This document shows, in pieces, positions 2,426 to 62,660 of a stretch of DNA of 64,000 nucleotides. The first letter of the stretch is position 1, and each line of letters begins with the position of its first letter. The translations under genes were made by a program, and so were the position numbers. Source of the DNA: a bacterium (GTDB lineage: Bacteria > Patescibacteriota > Minisyncoccia > UBA6257 > 2-01-FULL-56-20); the NCBI GenBank assembly GCA_027310625.1, contig DAIDAM010000003.1, positions 67,278 through 131,277 of the forward strand. The letters are read 5' to 3'. The notes under the pieces were generated by a model. The model saw nothing but the letters and a program-made list of their open reading frames with translations. It was not told the origin of the DNA and made no database searches.

Positions 2426-3520
2426 ATGAAAAAAACATTAATTGCGAAAACACTCGGACTATTAGTAAGTTTGTTTGTATTTGCCGGGGGCACGGTTTTT
2501 GCTCAACAAACAACACTTCCCCCAGCCGGCTTAACGCCCGAAAGCCCATTTTATTTTCTGGATAAGTTAGGCGAATCTCTACAGAGATTTTTCGCTTTCA
2601 ACCCAGAAGCAAGGGCCAGATTAGAGATAACTTTTGCCGCCGAGAGAATCGCCGAGATAAAAGTCGTTCTTCTTGATAAGGGTGTTCAGGCCAAGGGCCT
2701 CACTGTAGCGGAAGCGGGGCTGCAAGATAATCTTTCTCGGGCTGTAGAAATTGTTACGGCGGAAAAGACAAAAGGCAACAACGTAAGTCAGCTCGCCAGC
2801 GCCATTAGCGATGAAGTGAATCAAAATAAAACATTGCTAAAGGGGGCTTTCGGTGAACAAAAACAAACATTAGAATCCAAAGAAAATGAACTTAAAGCCG
2901 CTCTCCGTGAGGCGCGGCGAAGCGGAGACACCGCCAAAGCCGATGCGCTCGCTAAAGAGCTCCAAGACCTGAAGCTTCAAAAAGACGCGCTGGACAAAAA
3001 AGAAGGGGACGATGAAGATGCGATTGAAGCAGAAGATGAAAAATTGGGGGAGCAGATGGGGTTAAAAGATGAGGCGGCAAAGAAAATTAGAGAGGCAGAA
3101 CAAGAAAAAGCTGAAATTGTCAGCGAATTACAAAAAGATGGCGTTGATATTCCCGACGGAACTTTCAGCAAGTTTGACGGTCTTCTTGTTCAAGCCAAAA
3201 CCGCTTTTGATGCCGGCAATTACGCCGATGCCAAACAATTCGCCAAGCAAGCAGAAAAAAATCTTGAAGATGTCGATAAAACGCTTAACGAGTTGAAAGA
3301 TGCCAAAGAACAAGAACAAGAACTGAAAGAAGAAAGCGAGGATGTGCAGAAAGGAACAGAGGAAAAGTTAAAAGAAGCCGATAAAGAAAAAGCAGGGCAG
3401 ATTAAAGAAGAAGGTAAGCGAGAAGAAGAAAGAATTAAAGGGGAACAAAAGCAAAACGAAGAAAGTCAAAAAGGTATTGAAGAAAAGTTGCAGGAGAACA
3501 ATCAAGAGGGAGAACGATAG
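2426..3520 (+). CDS. secreted DUF5667-like coiled-coil protein; signal peptide, PESPFYFLDKLGE motif, E/K-rich C-terminal half
   Basis: N-terminal signal peptide; conserved DUF5667 N-terminal motif; low-complexity EK-rich tail. Confidence 0.7.
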   Translation: MKKTLIAKTLGLLVSLFVFAGGTVFAQQTTLPPAGLTPESPFYFLDKLGESLQRFFAFNPEARARLEITFAAERIAEIKVVLLDKGVQAKGLTVAEAGLQDNLSRAVEIVTAEKTKGNNVSQLASAISDEVNQNKTLLKGAFGEQKQTLESKENELKAALREARRSGDTAKADALAKELQDLKLQKDALDKKEGDDEDAIEAEDEKLGEQMGLKDEAAKKIREAEQEKAEIVSELQKDGVDIPDGTFSKFDGLLVQAKTAFDAGNYADAKQFAKQAEKNLEDVDKTLNELKDAKEQEQELKEESEDVQKGTEEKLKEADKEKAGQIKEEGKREEERIKGEQKQNEESQKGIEEKLQENNQEGER

Positions 3521-5018: not shown

Positions 5019-5062
5019 TCACTTGTCGCTTGTCGCTTGTCGCTGGTCGCTGGTCGCTAATT
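5019..5062. repeat. 6x heptanucleotide tandem repeat (TGGTCGC/TTGTCGC) at the 3' end of rpsB
   Basis: direct reading of period-7 repeat. Confidence 0.9.
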
Positions 5063-5864
5063 TTTCTACATTCGTTGCTTCATTTGGGGCAGAAACTATA
5101 ATCTTTCCCTCTTTTATGGCTTCACCGAGCTTTCCCAAAAACCAGGAAACGCTCGCTCTTGCTTTCGTATTCCCGACAACCGGATATTCAACCACCTCCG
5201 GATCGCAGTCCGTGTTCACATAGGCGACAATGGGAATCCCCGCGCGTTTCGCCTCGCGGATTGCAGCCGCATGCTGGCTCGGGTCTATGACGATAAGAAG
5301 TCCGGGCAACTCCGAATAATTTTCCAATCCGCCGAAAAGTTCGTCCAGCCGCTTCAGTTCCTTTTCAAATCCGAGCTGCTCTTTCTTTGTGTACTTCTGC
5401 ATCGCGCCGCTTTTGAATTCGGATTTAAGCTTTTTGTAATAATCTATTCTTTTCGATATCACTTTGAAATTGGTTATAAGCCCGCCGAGCCAGCGAACGT
5501 TGACGTACGGAATGCCGAATTCTTTTGCGAATCCCGCGACAGCTTCGGCGGCGTGCGGCTGCGTTCCAACAATCATGAATTTCCCGCCGCCTGCCTGCCC
5601 GCCTGCGCGGTCAGGCGCAGGCAAGCTTCTCGTTTTTTCTTTCACGAAACCGAGGGCGTTATTTAACCCATCCATCGTTTTCTGGAGATTTATTATCTCA
5701 ACCTCGTTCCTTGTCGCAAGAATATAAGGCCTCATGCGCGGATGGGTCTTTGACTTTTTCCTGCCGATGAAAACGCCAATGTCCGCAAGCTCCTTAAGCG
5801 CCCCCTCGGGATAAACGTCCGTTAAGTTGTCCTGTTTTACCTCGTTCATAATACATAAATACAA
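5019..5864 (-). CDS. rpsB: 30S ribosomal protein S2; the start may be the internal ATG at 5849; the C-terminus (ATSDQRQATSDK) is encoded by a 6x heptamer repeat
   Basis: S2 signature throughout; 3' end consists of tggtcgc/ttgtcgc x6. Confidence 0.9.
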   Translation of the reverse strand: MYLCIMNEVKQDNLTDVYPEGALKELADIGVFIGRKKSKTHPRMRPYILATRNEVEIINLQKTMDGLNNALGFVKEKTRSLPAPDRAGGQAGGGKFMIVGTQPHAAEAVAGFAKEFGIPYVNVRWLGGLITNFKVISKRIDYYKKLKSEFKSGAMQKYTKKEQLGFEKELKRLDELFGGLENYSELPGLLIVIDPSQHAAAIREAKRAGIPIVAYVNTDCDPEVVEYPVVGNTKARASVSWFLGKLGEAIKEGKIIVSAPNEATNVEKLATSDQRQATSDK

Positions 5865-10489: not shown

Positions 10490-11992
10490 CTATCTGATTG
10501 TGCCCCCGCCGAGCATTTCGTATTTCTCTGGTTTCTGGTCTCTGGTCTCTGGTCTCTTATAGTAGAACACAGCCGACTGACCTGCGGCGACGAACTTCTG
10601 CCCCTGCTCAAAGATGAGCAGCGCGGATTTGCGCGGATTAGACGCTGATTTGCGCGGATTTTTATCTGCGTTTATCTGCATATCGTCTGCGGGCATCAGC
10701 GTTGCAGGCGCGAGCGGTTGTCTGTACCTCACCCGCGCCAACACCTTATACCCCTTATTCGCACGAATTAGGGGTATAGTTTCCGAGTTGATGAAATTCA
10801 CATCGTGGAGTTTAATTTCTTTTCTGTACAACGCCGAATTGTCGCTCCCTTCTGCTACCACAAGCGTATTTGTTTCAACGTTTTTCTCAGCAACATAAAG
10901 CGGCTTGAAATCCGTTTTCTGCATAAGTCCGCGTTCTGTCTGTGTAAGTCCGCGATTGGTCATGCCAATATGTCTCTGCCCAATGGTGTAAAAATGCGCG
11001 CCGGAATGCCTGCCGATTTCTTCTCCGGCGGTATTCAAAACCGCGCCTTCTCTCGCGGGAAGATAACCGCCCAAAAACTCGGCGAGCGTAACTTTGCCGA
11101 GAAAGCAAATTCCCTGCGAATCTTTTTTCTCCGCCGTAGGCAAACCGGCTTTTCTCGCCATCGCCCGCACTTCTGACTTCAAATAATTGCCTATCGGGAA
11201 AAGGCAGTGTTGCAATTGCTCTTGCGTCAACGTCCAGAGAAAATATGACTGGTCTTTTTGCGCGTCACGCGCAGCGTATAGTTTATAACCATAACTCGAA
11301 TCTACGAATGTGCGCGAATTTGGCGAATTTAAAAAACTTTTATATTCGTTATATTCGCGCGAATTCGCGATATTCGAATTACGCATAAGCCGCACGTAGT
11401 GCCCGGTCGCCACGTAAATCCCTGCCTGCCGGCAGGCAGGCGCTCCCACGGACAGCGCTTTTTCCAAAAAGAGCCCGAACTTAATTTCCTTGTTGCACAT
11501 CACGTCCGGGTTGGGAGTAATGCCGCGGCGGTAACCGTCAACCATATAAGCGACGACTTTCTTTTTATATTCCTCCTCGAAATCCCAGATATAAAAAGGG
11601 ATTTCGAGTTTGCCGGCGACGCGGCGTGCGTCCTCGGCGTCTCTTTCCGCCTGACATTCATCGTCAAAATTTCCGCGCCCATCCGCGTTGAAATCCGCGT
11701 TAATCCGCGTGTTGGACGAAGTCCAACATTTCATAAAAACGCCGACGACATCGTAGCCATGGTTTTTAAGAAGCATGGCGGCGACTGAGGAATCAACCCC
11801 TCCACTCATTGCTACGAATACCTTTTTTTTACAAGCAAAGCCGCCAGCCTGCCTGCCATAGCCCTCGCCTTGCCGAAGCCGACGGCGAAGCGCAGGTTGG
11901 CGAAGGCGGGACATCCCCGCAAAAACTTTTTCTTTCCGTTTCTTCATGCGCCTATTTTTACATCGTCTTCTCCAATATATCAAATAAAACAA
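10490..11992 (-). CDS. mnmA: tRNA-specific 2-thiouridylase MnmA, with several in-frame repeat-derived insertions and a repeat-derived N-terminal extension
   Basis: SGGVDSS PP-loop, conserved MnmA core; low-complexity inserts (NPRKSASNPRKSAL, ETRDQKPEKYE). Confidence 0.85.
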   Translation of the reverse strand: MFYLIYWRRRCKNRRMKKRKEKVFAGMSRLRQPALRRRLRQGEGYGRQAGGFACKKKVFVAMSGGVDSSVAAMLLKNHGYDVVGVFMKCWTSSNTRINADFNADGRGNFDDECQAERDAEDARRVAGKLEIPFYIWDFEEEYKKKVVAYMVDGYRRGITPNPDVMCNKEIKFGLFLEKALSVGAPACRQAGIYVATGHYVRLMRNSNIANSREYNEYKSFLNSPNSRTFVDSSYGYKLYAARDAQKDQSYFLWTLTQEQLQHCLFPIGNYLKSEVRAMARKAGLPTAEKKDSQGICFLGKVTLAEFLGGYLPAREGAVLNTAGEEIGRHSGAHFYTIGQRHIGMTNRGLTQTERGLMQKTDFKPLYVAEKNVETNTLVVAEGSDNSALYRKEIKLHDVNFINSETIPLIRANKGYKVLARVRYRQPLAPATLMPADDMQINADKNPRKSASNPRKSALLIFEQGQKFVAAGQSAVFYYKRPETRDQKPEKYEMLGGGTIR

Positions 11993-31761: not shown

Positions 31762-31941
31762 GCCTCTGTGGTGAAACGGATATCATGACTGCCTTCCCTG
31801 CCCGCCGCAATTTGCCCTCGTGGTGAAATGGATATCACGTCAGGCTTCGAACCTGAAGTTCTAGGTTCAAATCCCGGCGAGGGCACGCGGCAAAGGCAGG
31901 CGGGGAAGCAGTCGTTGGGGGTTCGAATCCCTCCGGAGGCG
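31762..31941 (+). tRNA. interrupted tRNA-like gene. 5' part at 31762-31797 (acceptor, D-arm, 5' anticodon stem); 3' part at 31906-31941 (3' anticodon stem, T-arm TTCGAAT, acceptor, G73, no CCA). An ~110-nt insert lies in the anticodon loop. If spliced after C36, the loop would read CTTCCAA (Gly-UCC); identity unresolved.
   Basis: hand-folded: acceptor gcctctg/cggaggc, D-stem gtga/tcat, anticodon stem actgc/gcagt, T-stem ggggg/ccctc; insert forms a 9-bp helix ttccctgcc/ggcggggaa plus gccgc/gcggc. Confidence 0.5.
31814..31885 (+). tRNA. tRNA-Arg (anticodon TCG), complete 72-nt cloverleaf, nested inside the insert of the 31762-31941 tRNA-like gene
   Basis: acceptor gccctcg/cgagggc, D-arm tggtgaaatggatatcacg, anticodon stem tcagg/cctga with loop cttcgaa, T-loop ttcaaat, A73. 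Confidence 0.7.
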
Positions 31942-31961
31942 CAAACGCAATCGACTCTTTA

Positions 31962-32750: not shown

Positions 32751-32751
32751 C

Positions 32752-32823
32752 CCCCCATAGCTCAATTGGCAGAGCAGCGCCCTCTTAAGGCGAGTGTTTC
32801 AGGTTCAAGTCCTGATGGGGGGA
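32752..32823 (+). tRNA. tRNA-Lys (anticodon CTT), probable; C1-G72 start and a 3-bp D-stem make the fold slightly atypical
   Basis: acceptor cccccca/tgggggg, anticodon loop ctcttaa, T-loop ttcaagt, A73. Confidence 0.6.
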
Positions 32824-32830
32824 CAAAATC

Positions 32831-37876: not shown

Positions 37877-38578
37877 ATGACGAGACCGCGAATAATTCGG
37901 AACGAAATTTACCATGTCCTTAACCGTGGCGTAGATAAGCGAGCAATTTTCTCAGACGATAACGACCGCCTGCGGTTTATTCATAACCTCTTTGAGTTTA
38001 ACGACACCGCACCTGCACCCAATCTCGCCTACCATCTCGGCAAAAAACAATCTAAGGAAGTCGGACTTCCTAAGATTGAGAGGAGACGGCGGGAACTTTT
38101 GGTGGAAATTCTCGCGTTTTGCATGATGAAAAATCACTATCATCTTTTGGTCAGGCCGAAGGCTGATAATTTTCTAACGTTATTTATGAGAAAACTGGGA
38201 ACAGGGTACACCAATTATTTTAATCAAAAATATAAGCGGAGCGGAGCGCTTTTCCAAGGGAAATACAAAGTGGTGCACATTAACAATGATAGACATTTTA
38301 TTCATCTCCCCTACTACATTCACTTTAATCCATTAGACGGCTTTGCTCCGAGTTGGAGAGAAAAGGAAATAAAGGACCACAAAAAAGCAATGGAATTTTT
38401 GGAGAACTATCGCTGGAGCAGTTTTCCGGACTATATCGGCAGGAAAAATTTTCCTTCAATCACGCAAAGAGAATTTTTACTAAAGTTTTTCGGCGGCCCG
38501 GAGGAATACAAACGCAAAACGACAGAATGGCTAAAAGCAATCGATTTCGAGGCAATACACGACGTTGCACTAGAATAA
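37877..38578 (+). CDS. REP-associated tyrosine transposase (RAYT, IS200-like Y1 transposase); contains an internal REP copy at 38052-38074
   Basis: HxH motif (NHYHLLV) and catalytic Tyr region (LPYYIHFNP); flanked by REP palindromes. Confidence 0.8.
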   Translation: MTRPRIIRNEIYHVLNRGVDKRAIFSDDNDRLRFIHNLFEFNDTAPAPNLAYHLGKKQSKEVGLPKIERRRRELLVEILAFCMMKNHYHLLVRPKADNFLTLFMRKLGTGYTNYFNQKYKRSGALFQGKYKVVHINNDRHFIHLPYYIHFNPLDGFAPSWREKEIKDHKKAMEFLENYRWSSFPDYIGRKNFPSITQREFLLKFFGGPEEYKRKTTEWLKAIDFEAIHDVALE

Positions 38579-46123: not shown

Positions 46124-46191
46124 TTGCGCTTAATTATAACAAAATGTGGTTTGAAAATATGCTTCTCAAGATGTAACATAACAAAATCTTT

Positions 46192-46384
46192 GGCCCCATC
46201 GTCTAACGGTCAGGACATCGGCTTTTTTCACCCCGCACCAAATCCTAGGGCCCTGTCGTCTAGTCTGGTCTAGGACACGAGCTTTTCAAGCTCGGTACAC
46301 GGGTTCGAATCCCGTCGGGGCTGCACAAAATTTGGTGCGGGGCAAGAGCCGGTAACCGGGGTTCGACTCCCCGTGGGGCTGCCA
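46192..46384 (+). tRNA. interrupted tRNA-like gene. 5' part at 46192-46230; 3' part at 46343-46384 (T-arm TTCGACT, acceptor, G73, CCA encoded). A ~112-nt insert lies in the anticodon loop. D-arm is Glu/Gln-like; anticodon unresolved.
   Basis: acceptor ggcccca/tggggct, D-stem gtc/gac, anticodon stem tcggc/gccgg, T-stem cgggg/ccccg; insert contains a 9-bp helix ccccgcacc/ggtgcgggg. Confidence 0.5.
46249..46323 (+). tRNA. tRNA-Glu (anticodon TTC), complete, nested within the insert of the 46192-46384 tRNA-like gene
   Basis: cloverleaf closely parallel to E. coli tRNA-Glu (gtc tag…gac D-arm; stem cgagc/gctcg with loop ttttcaa; T-loop ttcgaat; G73). Confidence 0.7.
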
Positions 46385-46385
46385 A

Positions 46386-48944
46386 ATGTATCGCTTTTTA
46401 GAAATTTTTCCCGGAGCGCTTTCGTGGCTGACTCTTATCTTACTTGTTTCTCTTTCCCGCTACGCGCCGGCGTTCGTCGCCGTTTTCATCATACTTTTTG
46501 ACATCTACTGGCTTTTGAAAACGATTTATCTCTCGCTGCATCTCCGCTCAACTTTTTCGGTTATGAAAAAAAACCTGAAGGTGAACTGGCTCAATGAGCT
46601 GAAGGCACTGCCGCATAATCCCAATGGCCCGAATAGAATCCAAATGCCCCGAATTATAGAAAAGGATCTCTCTTATAAACTAAGCGGGGTTTTCTTCAAA
46701 GTTCATAACCAACTCGGCAGGTTCTGCAGAGAGCGTCAATATGGCGATGCCGTCGCAAAGGAACTTGAATCCCTCGGCGTAAATTTTCAGCGCGAAGTTG
46801 CCGTTGCGGTCGCCGGGCGAAAATCCAATTTCGTAGATTTTGTCGTTGAAAGCAAAATCGCAATAGAACTGAAGACGAAAGACATAATTGACAAAGAAGA
46901 TTATTTCCAACTTCAAAGATACCTTAAAGCGCTGGGATTGGAATTGGGCATAATAGTCAACTTTAGAAGAAAACACTTGAATCCCAAACGCGTTCTCAAT
47001 TCTGACTTCCTTTACAAGTATTCGGCTGATTCAGATACATTCGGCAATTCGGATTATGTGGTCAATAGATATTCGGACAATTCGGATTCATTCGGATATT
47101 CGGATTATGTGAAATCCTGGGAAGACATTTATCATTTGGTGATATTGCCGATGTACCGCGAGCCGTACGAGGTCGTGAAAGGAAGTTTTGAAAGCATATC
47201 TAAAGGAAACTATCCGCTGGAAAAGTTAATTGTCGTCCTGGCGACGGAAGAACGCGCCGGCGCCGAAGCGAGGAAAACGGCTGAGAAAATCAGGCGCGAG
47301 TTCGGCGGCAAATTTTTCAAGTTTTTGATTACCACGCACCCCGCGAATCTCCCCGGCGAAATTCCCGGCAAGGGTTCCAACGAAACCTGGGCGGCGAAAG
47401 AGGCGAAAAGATTAATCATTGACCCACTGGTCAATGCGCAGACCTACGCAGACAACACGCAGACCGACGCAGAAAACGATTTTCTGTATCCAGACCTGAC
47501 ATATGAAATCAGAGGTGCGATATTTTCCATTAAGAAAAAGCTCGGCCTCGGACACAAAGAAGTTGTTTATCAAAAAGCACTGGAAGAGGAATTTAATCGA
47601 CTAGGTTTGAATTTCGAAAAAGAAAAAACGGTGGATATTGCATATAATAACAAAAAAGTTGGTGTCTACCGCCCAGATTTTGTAATTGAGGATAAAATTA
47701 TTTTGGAACTGAAGGCATTACCATTTATGGGCAAATATGAAAAAAGGCAAGTTTGGCAGTATTTAAAAGGAACGGAATATAAACTAGCTATGTTGGTAAA
47801 CTTCGGCGGTAGCGATATTCGCATAGATAGAATAGTTTACGACACAGCTCGCGCAAGTCAGCGTAAGTCTGCGTTAAGTCAGCGAGAGTCAGCGCTGAAA
47901 TATGAAAATGTTTTAGTGTCGGTTTTCGACATTGACACACAGATATTTCCGGAGTATTTCGGGCGCCTCACATATGTCTTTTTGAAATCCGAAGACAAAT
48001 TGCAGGCGATTTACCAGCCGATACCGCTTTTCATAAATAACATCTACGACGCGCCGGCGCTCGCGCGCGTGATTTCCTTTTCAAGCACCTTCTGGCAGAT
48101 GATGCAGCAGTCGCGGCCGGAACGGCTGACGTCTTTTTCGTCGCAGTCAATCCCCTTGCGGGCGCTCATTGACATCGGCTACTGGCACAAAAACGTCGTC
48201 TCCGAGGACTCGCGGATTTTCTGGCAGTGCTATCTCCGCTATCACGGGAACTTCCGCGTCGAACCGCTTTTTTACCCGGTTTCGATGGACGCCAACGCCG
48301 CGCCGACATTTTGGAGAACGCTCAAAAATAATTACTTGCAGCACCGCCGCTGGGCCTGGGGCTGCGAAAACATTCCCTACTTGCTCTGCGGCAAACATAA
48401 TCCGAATCCACGAATGCATCCGAATAACACGAATAGGAGTCCAGATAATAAATTAGATTCGGAACATTCGGATAGATTCGGGGATTCGGATTATGCGGAG
48501 GGTTTCCTCCACAACAAAAAAATCCCTCTCCGCAAAAAGCTCTACTGGTCGTTCAATGTAATTGAAGGATTCCATTCCTGGGCGACGAACGCGCTGATAA
48601 TTTTCGCTCTCGGCTGGCTGCCCGTTCTTTTGGGCGGAGAAGGTTTCGGGATTTCCATTTTGTCGCGGAGCCTGCCTTCGATTACAAGATTCATCATTCA
48701 ACTCTCGATGGTCGGAGTCGCCACCGCCGCTTTCTTCAGCATTCTTCTTCTGCCGCCGCGAAAAGAACCTCTCGAATGGCATCAGTATATTTGGTATCTC
48801 CTCCAATGGCTTCTTCTGCCCGCGACACTCATAATTTTCGGGTCCATCCCCGCGCTCGAGGCGCAAACGCGGCTGATGGTCGGCGGAAAATGGCGGCTCG
48901 GATTCTGGCCGACGCCGAAAACGAGAACCAATAATAGAAGCTAG
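46386..48944 (+). CDS. processive family-2 glycosyltransferase (cellulose-synthase-like; GKGxN, DxD, Q(H)RRW motifs) carrying two in-frame GxxExxY domain insertions (~46644-47000 and ~47481-47840) plus heptamer-repeat tracts
   Basis: GT2 motifs VILPMYREP, GKGSNETWAAKEA, VFDIDTQ, QHRRWAWG; inserted segments each align with the free-standing GxxExxY gene at 28546. Confidence 0.8.
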   Translation: MYRFLEIFPGALSWLTLILLVSLSRYAPAFVAVFIILFDIYWLLKTIYLSLHLRSTFSVMKKNLKVNWLNELKALPHNPNGPNRIQMPRIIEKDLSYKLSGVFFKVHNQLGRFCRERQYGDAVAKELESLGVNFQREVAVAVAGRKSNFVDFVVESKIAIELKTKDIIDKEDYFQLQRYLKALGLELGIIVNFRRKHLNPKRVLNSDFLYKYSADSDTFGNSDYVVNRYSDNSDSFGYSDYVKSWEDIYHLVILPMYREPYEVVKGSFESISKGNYPLEKLIVVLATEERAGAEARKTAEKIRREFGGKFFKFLITTHPANLPGEIPGKGSNETWAAKEAKRLIIDPLVNAQTYADNTQTDAENDFLYPDLTYEIRGAIFSIKKKLGLGHKEVVYQKALEEEFNRLGLNFEKEKTVDIAYNNKKVGVYRPDFVIEDKIILELKALPFMGKYEKRQVWQYLKGTEYKLAMLVNFGGSDIRIDRIVYDTARASQRKSALSQRESALKYENVLVSVFDIDTQIFPEYFGRLTYVFLKSEDKLQAIYQPIPLFINNIYDAPALARVISFSSTFWQMMQQSRPERLTSFSSQSIPLRALIDIGYWHKNVVSEDSRIFWQCYLRYHGNFRVEPLFYPVSMDANAAPTFWRTLKNNYLQHRRWAWGCENIPYLLCGKHNPNPRMHPNNTNRSPDNKLDSEHSDRFGDSDYAEGFLHNKKIPLRKKLYWSFNVIEGFHSWATNALIIFALGWLPVLLGGEGFGISILSRSLPSITRFIIQLSMVGVATAAFFSILLLPPRKEPLEWHQYIWYLLQWLLLPATLIIFGSIPALEAQTRLMVGGKWRLGFWPTPKTRTNNRS
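47000..47115. repeat. ATTCGGA/ATTCGGC heptamer-type repeat tract encoding …DSDTFGNSDYVVNRYSDNSDSFGYSDY… inside the GT2 gene; a similar tract at ~48405-48490
   Basis: period-7 direct repeats. Confidence 0.7.
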
Positions 48945-50864: not shown

Positions 50865-53800
50865 TTGAAAAGATTGAACAGGTTGAGACAATCCCTTAAA
50901 ATAAAATCAATGTCGGAGATTTTGGAACCGCGATACGACCACCAAAAGCACGAAAAGGAAATTTACGAACTCTGGGAAAAGAGCGGGTATTTTAATCCGG
51001 ATAATTTGCCTACGGCAAGTTCGGAGTTCGGAGTTCGAAGTTCGAAGAATAAAAAAATATCTCAAACGAAACCTCGAACCTCGAACCTCGAACCGTTTTC
51101 CATTATCATGCCTCCGCCGAACGCGAACGGCTCGCTACATCTCGGGCACGCCGTGTTCGTCGCGTTGCAGGACATACTCATAAGATTCTGGCGCATGCGC
51201 GGCAAAAAAGCGCTCTGGCTTCCGGGGGCGGACCACGCCGGCTTTGAAACGCAGGTTGTCTTCGACAAAAAACTTGAAAAGGAAGGGCGGAATAGATTCA
51301 CCATTCCGCGCGAGGAACTTTTCAAAGAAATCTGGGACTTCACCCAGCACAATAAAAAAATAATGGAAGAGCAGTTGCGTAAACTCGGAGCGTCGTGCGA
51401 CTGGAGCCGCGAAAAATTCACGCTTGACCCGGCAATCATTAGAATCGTCTATGAAACTTTTGAAAAACTTTACAAGGACGGACTTCTTTACCGCGATTTG
51501 CGCGTCGTCAACTGGTGTCCGAAACACAAAACCGCGCTCTCCGACCTGGAAGTGAAGCACGAAGAGCGTCTGGACCAGCTCTACTACATAAAGTATGGGC
51601 CACTAACATTAGCGACAGTGAGACCGGAAACGAAATTCGGCGACACGGCGCTTGCCGTGAACCCGAAGGACAAACGCTATTCAAAATACATCGGAAAAGA
51701 AATACGCGCCTTGGGCCTGCTCGGCAAACTCACATTCAAAGTCATCGCCGACGAAGCCGTTGACCCGAAATTCGGGACGGGGGTCATTAAGGTCACGCCC
51801 GCGCATGACCCCGCGGACTTTGAAATCTGGCAAAGGCACAAAAAAGAAATTCCCGGTCCGAAAATAATCATTGACGAAAACGGGCGGCTTACCGGCGAAA
51901 CAGGAAAATTCGCAGGGATGAAAGTCGCGGAAGCGAGAATAAAAGTCGCCGAAGCGATGAAAGAAATCGGCATTCTTGAAAAAGTTGAGAACGATTACAA
52001 ACACTCCGTTGCCGTCTGCTACAAGTGCGGCAACGTGCTCGAGCCGATTCCGAAGATGCAATGGTTCATCGCCATGACGGCGAAACCGCATCAATCAAGA
52101 GACCGGAGACCGGAGACTGGAGACCGGAAAAAATCGTTGCGCGATTTGGGAATCGAGGCAGTTGAAAAGAAAAAAATAAAATTTTATCCGGCGCATTCCA
52201 AAAAAGTCATTCTTCATTGGCTGAAAAATATCCGCGACTGGAACATTTCGCGGCAAATCGTCTGGGGCATAAGAATCCCCGTCTGGTACTGCCTCGCCTG
52301 CTCCGCCCGCCCCGAGAGCAATCGAGGGGAGCCGAAGATAAACATTAATCAGGAAGTGAAATCGCGCTGGTTTCTCGTAAGGCACGGGGAAACGGATTGG
52401 AACAAGGAAGGACGCATAATGGGACAATCCGACATTCCACTCAATAAAACTGGGATGGCGCAGGCGGAAGAAGCCGCGCGGGAATTAAAGCCGCACAAGG
52501 TAGATCTTATTATAAGTTCTGACTCGGCGCGCTGTCGCCAAACTGCGGAAATAATTAAAAAAGAGACGGGCGCGGAAATAATCCTCGAAAAAAAATTAAG
52601 AGAGCGCCACCACGGAGACATCGAGGGATTGCTACGAAAGGATGTTTTTGAACAATATCCCCGTATTTACGAATACAGCTACGAAGGCAAATATATGAAT
52701 GCCGAAAGCTATCGCGAATTGGAAGAGCGCGCATGGGAAGTTTTCTCGTCGCACCATTCAAGGCACGGCCATAAAAACGTCGTTTTGATTACGCACGGTG
52801 GGACGATTAGGATGCTTATAAAAAGAATAAAAAATCTTACTCCGGAAGCGGCTCTCTCAATACCTTCCAGAAAAAACGCGGAGATAATCCAGCTTGACGT
52901 TTTGGATAAATGCGAAAATTGCGGCGGACATTTTTACGAGCAGGACCCCGACGTTTTTGACACCTGGTTCTCGTCCGGGCAATGGCCGTTTGCGACGCTG
53001 ATGACGAGCGACAAAAAAATGGGTTTCCATGAAGAAGTTGTCCCGCAGGTTTTGGACGGCAAAACCAAGACATACCGCTTGCGCGACCACGGATTCAAGG
53101 TCGGCGACAAGGTTTTGTTTGAAAACTCCGCTACCAAAAAAATCTTCGGATATGGAATTATCACGGAAGCAAAAAAAACCACGATAGACAAAATAGATTA
53201 CACAGACAAAAGCCATTACAAAACCTATAAAAATCTGGACGAGTTGATGACGGCGTTCAAACACAAGAACCCAGAAAAAACTTTTACTTCCAAATCTCCT
53301 GCTTATCTTTACGCTTACGATTTTTACCCGGCGAAAAATTTGGAGACCGACTTCGAAACTTTTTATCCGACCGATGTGATGGAAACCGGATACGACATAC
53401 TTTTCTTCTGGGTGGCGAGGATGGTCATGCTCGGAATTTACACGACGGGAAAAATTCCTTTCAGAACTGTTTATCTCCACGGCTTGGTTCTCGACAAAGA
53501 CAAAAAGAAAATGTCCAAGTCCAAAGGCAACGTTATTGACCCGCTCGGCGTCGCCGAAATTTACGGAAGCGACGCGCTCCGCATGGCGCTGGTCGCCGGC
53601 AACACCGCCGGCAAGGATATCGTCATCTCCGAAGACAAAATCCGCGGCTACAGGAATTTTGCGACGAAAGTGTGGAACATCAGCCGATTCATTTTAATGA
53701 ATAAAATGAAAGACATCAGACATCAGACATCAGACATCAGGGTAAAATTAACGGCTTCAGACAAAAAAAATATTGCGGAAGCCGAAAAAATCAAAGATAA

Positions 53801-54176
53801 AGTCGGAAAACACATTGAAAAATTCGAGTTTCATCTCGCGGCGGAAACGGCATACCATTACATCTGGCATACCTTCGCCGACAAAATAATTGAAGAATAT
53901 AAGCCGCGACTAAAAGCCGAAACGGGTTCCGAGGAAGCTCTCGGAGGCGCGGCGAGCTCGGCATCCGGAGGATTCGCCGCGCCGAGAGCGCAGGCGGGCG
54001 CTCGCCGCAGGAGCGAGCGAACCGCCGATTCCGAGGGGCCCGTTGCGGCTTATCAAACACTGGAAGCAATTCTTCTGGAATGCTTGAAAATGCTCCATCC
54101 GTTTATGCCGTTCATAACGGAGGCGATATTTCAGAAGCTAAACAAAGGAGAAATGCTGATGATAGAAAGATGGTAA
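50865..54176 (+). CDS. valS: valine-tRNA ligase with an embedded histidine-phosphatase (PGAM-like) domain (~52360-52910), a second ~100-aa insertion, heptamer tracts and a GC-rich C-terminal insertion
   Basis: HIGH (PPPNANGSLHLGH) and KMSKS motifs, editing domain; insert has RHGETDWN, RERHHGD and ITHGG motifs of the histidine phosphatase superfamily. Confidence 0.9.
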   Translation: MKRLNRLRQSLKIKSMSEILEPRYDHQKHEKEIYELWEKSGYFNPDNLPTASSEFGVRSSKNKKISQTKPRTSNLEPFSIIMPPPNANGSLHLGHAVFVALQDILIRFWRMRGKKALWLPGADHAGFETQVVFDKKLEKEGRNRFTIPREELFKEIWDFTQHNKKIMEEQLRKLGASCDWSREKFTLDPAIIRIVYETFEKLYKDGLLYRDLRVVNWCPKHKTALSDLEVKHEERLDQLYYIKYGPLTLATVRPETKFGDTALAVNPKDKRYSKYIGKEIRALGLLGKLTFKVIADEAVDPKFGTGVIKVTPAHDPADFEIWQRHKKEIPGPKIIIDENGRLTGETGKFAGMKVAEARIKVAEAMKEIGILEKVENDYKHSVAVCYKCGNVLEPIPKMQWFIAMTAKPHQSRDRRPETGDRKKSLRDLGIEAVEKKKIKFYPAHSKKVILHWLKNIRDWNISRQIVWGIRIPVWYCLACSARPESNRGEPKININQEVKSRWFLVRHGETDWNKEGRIMGQSDIPLNKTGMAQAEEAARELKPHKVDLIISSDSARCRQTAEIIKKETGAEIILEKKLRERHHGDIEGLLRKDVFEQYPRIYEYSYEGKYMNAESYRELEERAWEVFSSHHSRHGHKNVVLITHGGTIRMLIKRIKNLTPEAALSIPSRKNAEIIQLDVLDKCENCGGHFYEQDPDVFDTWFSSGQWPFATLMTSDKKMGFHEEVVPQVLDGKTKTYRLRDHGFKVGDKVLFENSATKKIFGYGIITEAKKTTIDKIDYTDKSHYKTYKNLDELMTAFKHKNPEKTFTSKSPAYLYAYDFYPAKNLETDFETFYPTDVMETGYDILFFWVARMVMLGIYTTGKIPFRTVYLHGLVLDKDKKKMSKSKGNVIDPLGVAEIYGSDALRMALVAGNTAGKDIVISEDKIRGYRNFATKVWNISRFILMNKMKDIRHQTSDIRVKLTASDKKNIAEAEKIKDKVGKHIEKFEFHLAAETAYHYIWHTFADKIIEEYKPRLKAETGSEEALGGAASSASGGFAAPRAQAGARRRSERTADSEGPVAAYQTLEAILLECLKMLHPFMPFITEAIFQKLNKGEMLMIERW

Positions 54177-54273
54177 GGGCTACGAAATTACGAATCAGTA
54201 CGAATATACGAATTCGTACATTCGCCTGCCTGCCGCAGGCAGGTAAAAATCTATAAATTAGTAACCTGACTTA

Positions 54274-55506: not shown

Positions 55507-55794
55507 ATGCGACATTGCGCAATTTGCGGAAAAGGTTCAATAATCGGAGGTAGAAGGAAGCTCCTGCGCGGGCATTACAATCCCGTTTCGAAATCGAGAA
55601 AATACCCCAATCTTCAGTGGGCCCGCCTGCCATCGCCTGCGGCTCAGTCCTCTGGCGGGCAGGCGAGAATCCCCGCCAAAGGCGGGTCCCTGCCCGACGG
55701 CGGGCGCGGCGCCTCGGGTGGAAATGGCGTACGAAAACTTATCTGCGCTCAATGCTTAAAAACGTTGAACCGCAAAGCCAAGACGAAAAAATGA
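55507..55794 (+). CDS. rpmB: 50S ribosomal protein L28 carrying a ~33-aa GC-rich in-frame insertion (55620-55720)
   Basis: L28 N- and C-terminal conserved segments (MRHCAICGKG…; …RKLICAQCLKTLNRK) separated by a Gly/Pro/Ala-rich segment of ~70% GC. Confidence 0.75.
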   Translation: MRHCAICGKGSIIGGRRKLLRGHYNPVSKSRKYPNLQWARLPSPAAQSSGGQARIPAKGGSLPDGGRGASGGNGVRKLICAQCLKTLNRKAKTKK

Positions 55795-55913: not shown

Positions 55914-56228
55914 CAAATTACAATAAAGGTTCGATTCTCCCGCCATTGTTCGAGCGAAGCGAGTTTACAATGGCGTGGATCCCGTACTCTCTCAATCCCA
56001 AAAAAAACACAAAATATAAAAATAGCGGCGGGATCGCGCCAACTCTAACTTCGCTTTCGCTCAGAGAGTTGCGGGACGCCTGGCCCGACACTAGAAATCG
56101 CTTGGCGAGTATTCGAGCTTAGCGTTTCTTGTGCCCCGCCGCAGGCGGGGCCGCCATATGCACCTTCCTTCGCTCCCGTCTTCACAAGGGCTACGGCGGG
56201 CAAGAAAGCTTCGGAAGAGTTATCAACA

Positions 56229-60354: not shown

Positions 60355-60545
60355 CAGTCGTCATCCGCACCCGCCTGCCAACGCCTGCCAGTGAAGTTAT
60401 GATATAGTTTCAAAGTAAATGTCATCTTTTTGTTATTGCCGAGTTTCATTGGATGGCTATGGCGGGCAGGTAAATCAGCGTCAAAAGTATTCCCCGCAGC
60501 GATGAACGCTGATAAATGCTGATTTTGGGCGGATTAACGCTGATG
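60355..60545. repeat. intergenic palindromic element, ATCAGC/GCTGAT family
   Basis: catcaatcagtcgtcatccgc … cgctgataaatgctgattttg. Confidence 0.55.
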
Positions 60546-62494: not shown

Positions 62495-62660
62495 TTTATG
62501 GTATCCGCATTAATCAGCTGTCATCCGCATTTATCAGCGTTCTTGCTGTGAAAAAGTTTTTGACGCTGATTTACCTGCCCGCCGAAGCCCTCGCCTTGCC
62601 GAAGCCGACGGCGAAGCGCAGGTCGGCGCAGGCGGGTGCCGATTTTGACGGATTTATGCT
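62495..62660. repeat. intergenic element: ATCAGC/GCTGAT arms plus a GC-rich segment (GCCCTCGCCTTGCCGAAGCCGACGGCGAAGCGCAGGT) that is also found inside the mnmA 5' region (11858-11895)
   Basis: 38-nt near-identity between 62582-62620 and 11858-11895. Confidence 0.65.

Follow-up and report, generated by a model that had tools for sequence, protein, structure and literature searches.

In the 64,000-nucleotide stretch of contig DAIDAM010000003.1 analyzed here (hereafter the window), positions 46192 to 46384 of the forward strand hold a nested tRNA locus, in which a full tRNA-Glu(UUC) is carried on the end of a 13-bp helix inserted into the anticodon loop of an outer gene, itself tRNA-like and not a clean tRNA. 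We refer to the tRNA-Glu(UUC) at 46249 to 46323 as the inner tRNA, to the interrupted outer tRNA-Glu-like gene as the shell and to both together as the nest; the locus is called locus 2, locus 1 being an Arg-in-Arg nest in the same window. A first-pass annotation had described a nested tRNA at these coordinates, and all the parts that it described are found there. The explanation that we favor, with roughly even confidence, is that the nest gives a single precursor of which the inner tRNA is the decoder, the shell having arisen from an interrupted tRNA-Glu(UUC) and being kept by selection as a tRNA-like scaffold. Full-text literature searches returned no published description of nested tRNA genes. 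The window is of the Patescibacteria (Candidate Phyla Radiation, CPR) type, encoding EF-G, EF-Tu, SecY, ribosomal proteins, RecG, MnmA and TsaD, and the closest named relatives of its RecG (65 to 75% identical) belong to metagenome-assembled genomes (MAGs) of Candidatus Liptonbacteria, Paceibacterota and "Patescibacteria group."

Architecture of the nested tRNA-Glu locus

The inner tRNA makes up 75 nt of an insert of 112 to 116 nt. ARAGORN calls it as tRNA-Glu(ttc), and it matches the Rfam tRNA model above the gathering threshold (59.1 bits, E = 3e-10, threshold 29) and has the 7-nt anticodon loop of a canonical tRNA, in agreement with the complete tRNA-Glu(TTC) noted earlier at this position; it is one of five tRNAs that ARAGORN and Rfam detect in the window. 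Both halves of the shell form acceptor, D, anticodon and T stems and end in G73 and CCA, as had been proposed, with all stems perfectly paired (7/7, 4/4, 5/5 and 5/5 for acceptor, D, anticodon and T stem, respectively). The fold of the whole 193 nt is an exact nested cloverleaf (−91.6 kcal/mol, z = −5.3), with none of 200 shuffles folding as well.

The helix at the base of the insert lies where the first-pass annotation had placed it and measures 13 bp, not the 9 bp given there. Below it, AAG of the 3' junction pairs with UUU of the 5' junction and UCA is bulged opposite C, giving a stalk of 5 + 4 + 13 bp (about 22 bp including the anticodon stem and this mini-helix) with one internal loop. 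Exact matches to the stalk arms (GGTGCGGGG) within the window are limited to the two arms themselves, matches with one mismatch occurring at chance level; an origin of the locus 2 arms as a dispersed repeat of the repetitive extragenic palindromic (REP)/REPIN type was ruled out, the arms being single copy in the window.

With respect to transcription, the only promoter-like site between 45900 and 46600 lies upstream of the shell, and the scan of this interval returned none between the shell start and the inner tRNA. On the other side, the ATG of a glycosyltransferase gene begins 2 nt past the shell CCA (46381-46388), so that processing of the shell 3' end would make an mRNA 5' end nearly at the start codon; this spacing is not kept in L139, an orthologous locus (loci elsewhere are designated by L and a number). 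The parts of the nest are listed in Table 1.

Table 1. Coordinates of the two nests of the window and of the parts of locus 2
Feature	Position	Strand	Description
Promoter-like site	46151-46179	+	TTGAAA, 17 nt, TAACAT; upstream of shell
Shell 5' half	46192-46222	+	Acceptor GGCCCCA, U8 C9, D arm GTCTAACGGTCAGGAC, A26, anticodon-stem TCGGC
Shell acceptor 5' strand	46192-46198	+	GGCCCCA
Shell D arm	46201-46216	+	
Shell anticodon-stem 5' strand	46218-46222	+	TCGGC
5' junction	46223-46230	+	TTTTTTCA (8 nt); remnant of anticodon-loop positions 32-37 (UUUUCA) plus two extra U
Stalk 5' arm	46231-46243	+	CCCCGCACCAAAT; pairs with 46330-46342
5' spacer	46244-46248	+	CCTAG; leader of inner tRNA
Inner tRNA-Glu(UUC)	46249-46323	+	Includes discriminator G73, CCA not encoded; ARAGORN, Rfam
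3' spacer	46324-46329	+	CACAAA; trailer of inner tRNA
Stalk 3' arm	46330-46342	+	ATTTGGTGCGGGG; pairs with 46231-46243
3' junction	46343-46347	+	CAAGA; tail CAAG plus A
Shell 3' half	46348-46384	+	GCCGG, TAAC, CGGGG-TTCGACT-CCCCG, TGGGGCT, G73, CCA
Shell anticodon-stem 3' strand	46348-46352	+	GCCGG; followed by variable region TAAC
Shell T arm	46357-46373	+	CGGGG-TTCGACT-CCCCG
Shell acceptor 3' strand	46374-46380	+	TGGGGCT
Shell G73	46381	+	
Shell CCA	46382-46384	+	
Locus 1 nest	31762-31943	+	Arg-like shell 31762-31796 and 31905-31943; inner tRNA-Arg(UCG) 31814-31885

Origin of the shell and the loop left by its halves

With its loop left out and its halves joined, the window shell shares 94% identity with an intact tRNA-Glu(UUC), the inner tRNA of L128 (a Liptonbacteria MAG), which has the anticodon loop UUUUCAA. 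This identity indicates that the shell was once a tRNA-Glu(UUC); the interruption follows A37, and two additional U are now present. The inner tRNA of locus 2 comes from another tRNA-Glu(UUC) lineage, one whose D loop is long. The neutral decay of a tRNA pseudogene is not observed in the window shell, in which the T loop and A45/A46 are retained; features of such decay do occur in other lineages (L128, L130 and L176).

Between the anticodon-stem strands of the shell, 8 nt (TTTTTTCA) and 5 nt (CAAGA) are left over. Joined as the first-pass annotation had split them, the halves enclose a 13-nt loop and are called by ARAGORN as tRNA-SeC(tca), and removal of the arms together with CAAG leaves a 9-nt loop (TTTTTTCA + A) and a call of Lys(ttt); a tRNA-Glu(ttc) call is obtained for the joined shell only after deleting two further U. 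Other splice registers tried for a 7-nt loop in locus 2 all leave two extra nt or need a 7-bp anticodon stem. The shell without its insert therefore has the four stems of a canonical tRNA, together with an anticodon loop that is not 7 nt long. In addition, the discriminator bases of shell and inner tRNA agree in most of the 30 loci scored (G/G in 3 and A/A in 24; Fisher P = 0.007), with mismatches only in three decayed shells, an agreement that could also come from shared ancestry or from short gene-conversion tracts.

Conservation and covariation of shell, stalk and junction

In an alignment of 28 distinct nests, locus 2 included, with a fixed register of 30 pairs, 98.5% of cells are standard pairs and 24 of the 30 pairs change on both sides, values reached by none of 500 shuffles and falling to 35 to 55% in slid registers, with the caveat that the search for 3' halves relied on complementarity to the 5' acceptor and on pairing in the T stem, and that the longest helix was taken as the arms; features that are fully independent are limited to the anticodon stem, T loop and variable region. 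These independent features are conserved as well, the anticodon stem being 5/5 in most shells and the T loop (UUCGAYU/UUCAAWU) and variable region (NAAY) being kept nearly everywhere. The earlier argument that the locus is not a chance pseudogene is thereby borne out, the helix and both halves being conserved and covarying in related genomes. Since the arms of locus 2 are single copy and covary, they are maintained today as an RNA helix.

The orthologous nest in L139/L168 is syntenic, with a pilin-like gene upstream and a glycosyltransferase gene downstream as in the window, and the neighboring genes are about 72 to 75% identical. The upstream flank cannot be aligned save for the −35 and the extended −10. 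Relative to L168, the window has 12 differences over 65 shell positions, every stem change among them being compensatory and none disruptive (5-68 C-G to U-A, 27-43 U.G to A-U, 29-41 G-C to A-U and 49-65 C-G to A-U), and 7 over the 75 positions of the inner tRNA. The spacers vary freely, all 13 junction nucleotides are identical, and the sole difference in the 26 arm nucleotides is a change in length by 1 nt at the distal end. Similar gradation is seen over all 13 pairs compared, in which divergence is 15% for the inner tRNA, 20% for the shell stems and 52% for the spacers, the fastest part, with the junction at 6.6% (7/106) in the nine GC-arm pairs. This compensatory and region-graded divergence argues that the shell is not behaving like a decaying pseudogene. 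Furthermore, shell and inner tRNA form separate orthologous lineages in the window and L139/L168, which makes recent gene conversion unlikely.

Distribution and classes of nests in other genomes

A search pattern of two Glu D arms 20 to 50 nt apart, too near for tandem genes, gave 15 matches across 185,579 species genomes, almost all of them in Patescibacteria (Moran-, Lipton-, Azam-, Berkel-, Curtiss-, Nealson- and Shapirobacteria), and another 49 in metagenomes, with no match in 2.9 million viral contigs. De-duplication left about 30 distinct complete Glu-in-Glu nests that have both halves and perfect or near-perfect acceptor, anticodon and T stems, with covarying arms of 6 to 19 bp in loci other than locus 2; some loci keep the shell 5' half only, and the few matches outside the CPR (L126 and L164) are plain partial tandem duplications. 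A strict nested-tRNA detector recovered both window loci and six CPR Glu loci, and returned one match, not tRNA-like, from 80 tRNA-rich phage loci. An isotype-blind pattern of two T loops 30 to 58 nt apart was abandoned, the viral matches listed being unrelated tRNA clusters and att-like fragments. Lys nests were found incidentally: tRNA-Lys(UUU) lies within a Lys-like shell in L165 (1230-1390) and L169 (7670-7830), where CCCGCC/GGCGGG arms replace the entire anticodon stem-loop of the shell, and tRNA-Lys(CUU) lies within a Lys shell in L186 (about 2600-2830, minus strand), with the loop CUCU/.../UAA (slashes mark the insert boundaries) and long AT-rich arms.

The Glu nests fall into several classes. 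Type A comprises CUC shells (L121/141, L134, L147, L148, L150 and L133) of the form UUC/CCCGCC...GGCGGGCAGG/UCAU, in which the arms are only 6 bp long and removal of the insert restores an exact 7-nt loop. Type B comprises the UUC shells of the window and 12 other lineages (13 in all), of the form YU+YUUUCA/CCC-arm...arm-GGG+CA(A/G/C)G+N (CGAG in L171 and L176), with a leftover loop of 8 to 11 nt in most and of 7 nt only in L171 and L176, that of L176 reading UUU. The type B leftovers fold alike, with a 3-bp YUU/AAG mini-helix stacked on the anticodon stem, UCA (U35 C36 A37) bulged opposite C, and arms that open with CCC/GGG. The stalk replaces the anticodon loop outright in L123, L132, L149 and L156 as well as in the Lys shell of L165/L169, and a further class (L137, L151, L159 and L182) has AT-rich arms and an extra hairpin. 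The insert lies in the variable region in L129 and in the T loop, with a 37-nt duplication, in L158; insertion sites across the nests thus include 34/35, 35/36, 37/38, 38/39, the variable region and the T loop.

Triple nests (L130, L171 and L151) have three levels, with the outermost shell partly deleted, and GC-rich hairpins follow C56 of the shell T loop in L121, L141, L123, L128 and L176. The T-loop palindrome measures 20 nt in L121 and 40 nt in L141, loci that are otherwise identical, indicating that T-loop inserts expand quickly. The 5' half is identical to the inner tRNA in L122, L127, L140, L160 and L175, and a CUC inner tRNA is found with a UUC-type shell in L125, L130, L131, L138 and L171. 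Many 5' arms (window locus 2, L135, L128, L145, L171, L176 and L180) carry (A/G)CCA 6 to 7 nt past the junction, paired with UGGU in the 3' arm, so that the stalk, in its inner part, is similar to an NCCA-bearing acceptor helix; the likeness is perhaps due to common ancestry only.

Locus 1 and the GC-rich palindromic repeats of the window

The first-pass annotation had seen one design at both loci, which holds loosely: both nests are real, with the insert at 35/36 in the Arg nest and at 37/38 in the Glu nest, and with different arms, those of the Arg nest being repeat derived. Deleting 31797-31904 from locus 1 gives a clean tRNA-Arg(tcg) by ARAGORN, whose loop, CUUCGAA, is that of the inner tRNA. 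The locus 1 arms (CCTGCCCGCCGC... / ...GCGGCAAAGGCAGGCGGG) start with CCTGCCCGCC and finish with GGCAGGCGGG, termini that also bound repeats of 42 to 100 nt at 55622-55662 (minus strand), 60370-60469 (minus strand) and 62575-62640 (plus strand), and, in a different CPR lineage, the insert in the T loop of the L123 shell. The multi-copy state typical of REP/REPIN-like elements is thus found in the window for the arm termini of locus 1, unlike the arms of locus 2. A single DNA-transposon target site of the form TTC/ was considered; type A, the Arg nest and the T-loop inserts are compatible with it, and type B and the repeat copies within open reading frames (ORFs) and intergenic regions of the window are not.

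More GC-rich palindromes of this dispersed family occur at 54225-54243, 5590-5625 and 11848-11857. Some lie inside ORFs of essential genes that stay open, namely those of MnmA (11421-11440 in 10490-11992) and S2 (5590-5603 in 5019-5864), and the MnmA copy, CCTGCCTGCCGGCAGGCAGG, adds eight residues in frame (APACRQAG) beside the ATGHY motif. Excision of the palindromes at the RNA level is argued against by this in-frame copy and the open S2 ORF, which together suggest that the palindromes are translated DNA-level insertions and not RNA introns. A second, AT-richer repeat (GCTGATAAATCAGCG-like) is present inside the MnmA ORF, where it is translated as INADKNPRKSASNPRKSA-type stretches, and also flanks GC-rich elements in intergenic regions (60440-60520 and 62520-62580). 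The window also encodes a Y1 (IS200-like) transposase-domain ORF (37877-38578), next to which no GC-rich repeat termini were found. A T-arm-like fragment, AAAGGTTCGATTCTCCC, lies at 55925-55945, 12 nt downstream of tRNA-Pro(GGG), and may be all that survives of a lost shell; a 5' half to match it was not seen.

Gain and loss of nests among relatives

At the same syntenic site and a similar distance, L189, L190, L191, L193 and L194 carry an inner-type tRNA-Glu(UUC), orthologous to that of locus 2, that is un-nested, the one in L193 being 100% identical to the inner tRNA of L139. In L186 (RecG 75% identical), the closest syntenic relative examined for locus 1, tRNA-Arg(UCG) is un-nested and tRNA-Lys(CUU) is nested, whereas the window shows the reverse, with tRNA-Lys(CUU) un-nested at 32751-32824 and tRNA-Arg(UCG) nested. 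These contrasts among relatives indicate that nests are gained and lost on a genus timescale. Directly upstream of the un-nested tRNA-Glu of L190 lies a small GIY-YIG ORF (1129-1389), in a gene order as in the window.

Splicing signals and intron classes

A bulge-helix-bulge (BHB) motif has two 3-nt bulges, one per strand, separated by 4 bp at the borders between exon and intron. No such motif was found in locus 2, where minimum-free-energy and hand folds give a single asymmetric internal loop (UUCA facing C) without another bulge, and a BHB fitted by hand to type A, type B and the Arg nest suits none of them. Rfam returned no group I core for locus 2, either at the gathering threshold or at E <= 10, and a permissive Rfam scan of the locus for ribozymes gave tRNA-like noise only. 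The 5' exon ends in A in the Glu nest (46230) and in C in the Arg nest (31796), which departs from the group I exon/intron rule, with which the terminal G of the insert agrees (PMC13011429). Among the roughly 40 larger ORFs of the window, itself a minor portion of the genome, none has an RNA ligase (RtcB-type) or splicing endonuclease (EndA) Pfam domain. The two halves are not at separate loci as in the Nanoarchaeum type, but flank the inner tRNA on one strand, within 193 nt and behind one promoter-like site; the GC-rich complementary sequences that adjoin the halves of split tRNAs are present, in the form of the 13-bp arms.

A proposed precursor with a scaffold shell, and the alternatives

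In the explanation that we favor, a former tRNA-Glu(UUC) gene, now the shell, would have been interrupted at the DNA level between positions 37 and 38 by a hairpin-flanked tRNA cassette, in which two mutually complementary arms frame a complete tRNA-Glu(UUC). The varied insertion sites and the repeat termini on the Arg arms favor such a DNA-level origin of nests, and only same-isotype insertions would survive, because they replace the function that they destroy. The promoter upstream of the shell would then give a single precursor, a cloverleaf bearing a second cloverleaf on a stalk of about 22 bp, from which RNase P and RNase Z (with the CCA-adding enzyme) would cut out the inner tRNA as the working decoder; the inner tRNA carries the features that both enzymes use in general bacterial tRNA maturation. 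Its excision would necessarily split the shell into pieces of about 57 and 60 nt, which base pairing in the arms, anticodon stem and acceptor stem would hold together. The shell of locus 2, probably no longer a standard decoder, would be kept as an L-shaped tRNA-like scaffold. It would supply tRNA-type ends to the precursor, prevent mispairing between the two paralogous halves and the inner tRNA, and offer the conserved stalk-base motif (YUU/AAG mini-helix and bulged UCA) to a putative reader. As the comparison of loci shows, shells decay or are deleted over time and new nests form, leading to double and triple dolls and to a patchy distribution among relatives.

Ligation of the shell into a decoder in locus 2 is argued against by the 9-nt loop, the loop-less shells, the varied insertion sites and an inner tRNA with the identical anticodon, and some tRNA-type function is supported by the compensatory changes, the retained tertiary nucleotides, the close match to a working tRNA, the strongly conserved loop remnant, the exact loops regained in type A and in the Arg and Lys(CUU) nests, and the discriminator bases that shell and inner tRNA have in common. 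Several points weigh against the scaffold explanation. We infer all of its processing steps, and the covariation evidence is in part circular. Type A Glu nests, the Arg nest of the window and the Lys(CUU) nest of L186 regain an exact 7-nt loop when the insert is removed. The conserved junction consists mostly of anticodon-loop nucleotides, which would be the most conserved in a functional spliced tRNA too. The near-identity of the shell to a working tRNA and the discriminator match hint at recognition by glutamyl-tRNA synthetase (GluRS). Finally, the loci with a 5' half only indicate that the inner tRNA can function when the shell is not intact, so that a scaffold is not strictly required.

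The first-pass annotation had implied that the shell is an intron-containing tRNA-Glu, from which the insert (arms, inner tRNA and tail) is removed and whose halves are ligated, so that one gene gives two tRNAs; the endonuclease step would fall to RNase P and RNase Z, which excise the inner tRNA, and trimming and an RNA ligase, or a putative stalk-base nuclease, would complete the reaction. This accounts for the exact 7-nt loops of type A across deeply diverged lineages (UUC/.../UCAU), of the Arg nest (CUUC/.../GAA) and of the L186 Lys nest (CUCU/.../UAA), and it agrees with a junction that is the most conserved region, with shell stems, T loop and variable region kept as in a working tRNA, and with a discriminator that covaries with that of the inner tRNA; nests with a CUC inner tRNA and a UUC shell would moreover let one locus supply both isoacceptors. 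We nevertheless consider it unlikely, since the product would have a 9-nt loop (or a 7-bp stem) in locus 2 and its orthologue and a loop of 8 to 11 nt in most other UUC-type shells, some shells have no anticodon loop at all, and insertion sites are heterogeneous. Neither a BHB nor a ribozyme match was found, and the larger ORFs of the window show no domain of a ligase or endonuclease; the arms left after cleavage by RNase P and RNase Z would still have to be removed precisely, and, with the same anticodon on inner tRNA and shell, a second decoder is unneeded here. An outer tRNA cut at set positions and religated, with RtcB or a splicing endonuclease, is thus not upheld for locus 2. The general proposition that the CPR splice tRNAs with neither a group I ribozyme nor a BHB endonuclease, the intron being a tRNA and the halves being ligated or serving as a two-piece tRNA, seems improbable to us to the same degree; if true, Bacteria would have their first case of protein-dependent tRNA splicing or of a natural split tRNA.

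Somewhat more doubtful is a shell with its own function as a non-decoding, aminoacylatable or protein-binding tRNA-like RNA, for example as a GluRS-binding regulator or as a donor for a non-ribosomal aminoacyl-tRNA-dependent reaction; the stalk would deliberately block its anticodon arm. The conservation of the window shell relative to a functional tRNA, the exposure of U35-C36-A37 as a conserved bulge and the discriminator shared with the inner tRNA would suit such a role, and the nested isotypes, in a small and biased sample, are Glu, Arg and Lys, whose class I synthetases need tRNA for amino acid activation. The proposal is, however, purely inferential, a uniform role is contradicted by shells with no anticodon-loop remnant or with T-loop inserts, and un-nested relatives manage without a shell. 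We give still less credence to the shell as a dead, functionless tRNA gene, hit by a mobile hairpin cassette with a replacement tRNA and intact in appearance only, through recency or gene conversion. The decay series across lineages, the termini common to the Arg arms and the dispersed repeat family, the close syntenic relatives without a nest, the Y1 (IS200-like) transposase gene in the window and the five loci in which the 5' half equals the inner tRNA (L122, L127, L140, L160 and L175), indicating recent duplication or conversion, would all fit this course of events. The nest is, however, common to the window and L139/L168 at only about 72 to 75% gene identity, with compensatory stem changes throughout, an invariant stalk base and free spacers; shell and inner tRNA are distinct orthologous lineages, making recent conversion unlikely, and the Glu arms are not repeated in the window. 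A chance resemblance or an assembly artifact is effectively refuted by the fold (z = −5.3) and the covariation, by the same architecture in independent assemblies from many samples, and by a 100% identical RecG on an independently assembled contig from run SRR5161795.

Comparison with known systems

Disrupted tRNA genes (intron-containing, split and permuted) are held to be an archaeal and eukaryal speciality, with tRNA-Glu among the split tRNAs of Nanoarchaeum equitans and with some archaeal tRNA introns carrying cargo RNA, such as the C/D-box RNA in tRNA-Trp. The nest resembles these archaeal tRNAs in that the tRNA body is interrupted in or near the anticodon loop and that GC-rich complementary sequences unite the halves. 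Protein-spliced tRNA introns lie at the canonical 37/38 site and also at non-canonical ones (PMC4090602, PMC3218864). The nest differs in its bacterial host, in having both halves on one transcript and no BHB, and in its cargo, a complete tRNA of the same isotype; the halves of locus 2, furthermore, cannot rebuild a 7-nt loop. To our knowledge, no splicing endonuclease is known in bacteria, and the known bacterial tRNA introns are self-splicing ribozymes of group I, rarely group II, a group I intron in a tRNA being usually longer than 200 nt. A survey of tRNA introns in Patescibacteria describes group I introns only, including at 35/36 in the anticodon loop, and does not mention nested tRNAs (PMC13011429). 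Nests share with these introns the phylum, an anticodon-loop site, including 35/36 in the Arg nest, and an insert ending in G, but they have no group I core, only 37 to 42 nt of non-tRNA sequence and a 5' exon that ends in A or C instead of U.

In engineered tRNA scaffolds, a recombinant RNA is grafted onto the anticodon stem of a tRNA and the chimera is processed as a tRNA. Here, too, the acceptor, D and T arms are kept and a foreign RNA sits on an extended anticodon stem, and shells with a wholly replaced loop (L132, L149 and L165) have exactly this design; nests differ in being natural and evolutionarily conserved, with a tRNA as cargo that is expected to be excised. Nature appears to have reached the tRNA scaffold of RNA engineering. 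In rRNA operons, processing stalks and intervening sequences form flanking helices that RNase III cuts, with pieces that are not re-ligated; an RNase III stalk takes up about two helical turns. The nest is similar in that the leader and trailer of a mature RNA form a long helix (about 22 bp in the window) and the leftovers would stay paired, and it differs in having a tRNA as the mature RNA and tRNA halves as its flanks; the 6-bp stalks of type A are, moreover, too short for RNase III. Rickettsia palindromic elements insert in frame into genes, and the palindromic family of the window likewise occurs in frame within ORFs. REP/REPIN palindromic repeats are associated with RAYT (Y1) transposases (PMC3733652). 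The Arg arms and the T-loop inserts are akin to these in carrying the CCTGCCCGCC...GGCAGGCGGG termini of a palindromic family, and a Y1 gene is present; in contrast to REP elements, the locus 2 arms are single copy in the window and covary across lineages rather than keeping their sequence. We know of no REP family with a tRNA in its loop.

A tRNA gene interrupted by a tRNA gene, widespread in a major bacterial radiation, represents a new type of disrupted tRNA. Since standard tRNA finders report the inner gene only, shells are invisible in current annotations, and tRNA gene counts for these genomes may be incomplete. Whether the halves are rejoined, form a two-piece RNA or serve only as a scaffold, any answer would be new for RNA processing in minimal genomes. 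In addition, the series from fresh nests with exact loops through conserved and decaying shells to un-nested genes provides a record of tRNA disruption and replacement that bears on old arguments over the origin of split and intron-containing tRNAs.

Domain insertions in neighboring protein-coding genes

The glycosyltransferase downstream of the nest (46386-48944; 852 aa) carries PD-(D/E)XK_3 (GxxExxY) domain insertions in two stretches; its homologues measure about 500 aa without the insertion and about 650 to 720 aa with it. The same domain is also inserted in some RecG homologues (P0019, P0021, P0024 and others), a pattern that resembles mobile, in-frame insertion of the domain. A class I aminoacyl-tRNA synthetase ORF (50865-54176; 1103 aa) holds a complete His_Phos_1 domain in the middle of the protein (residues 503-680).

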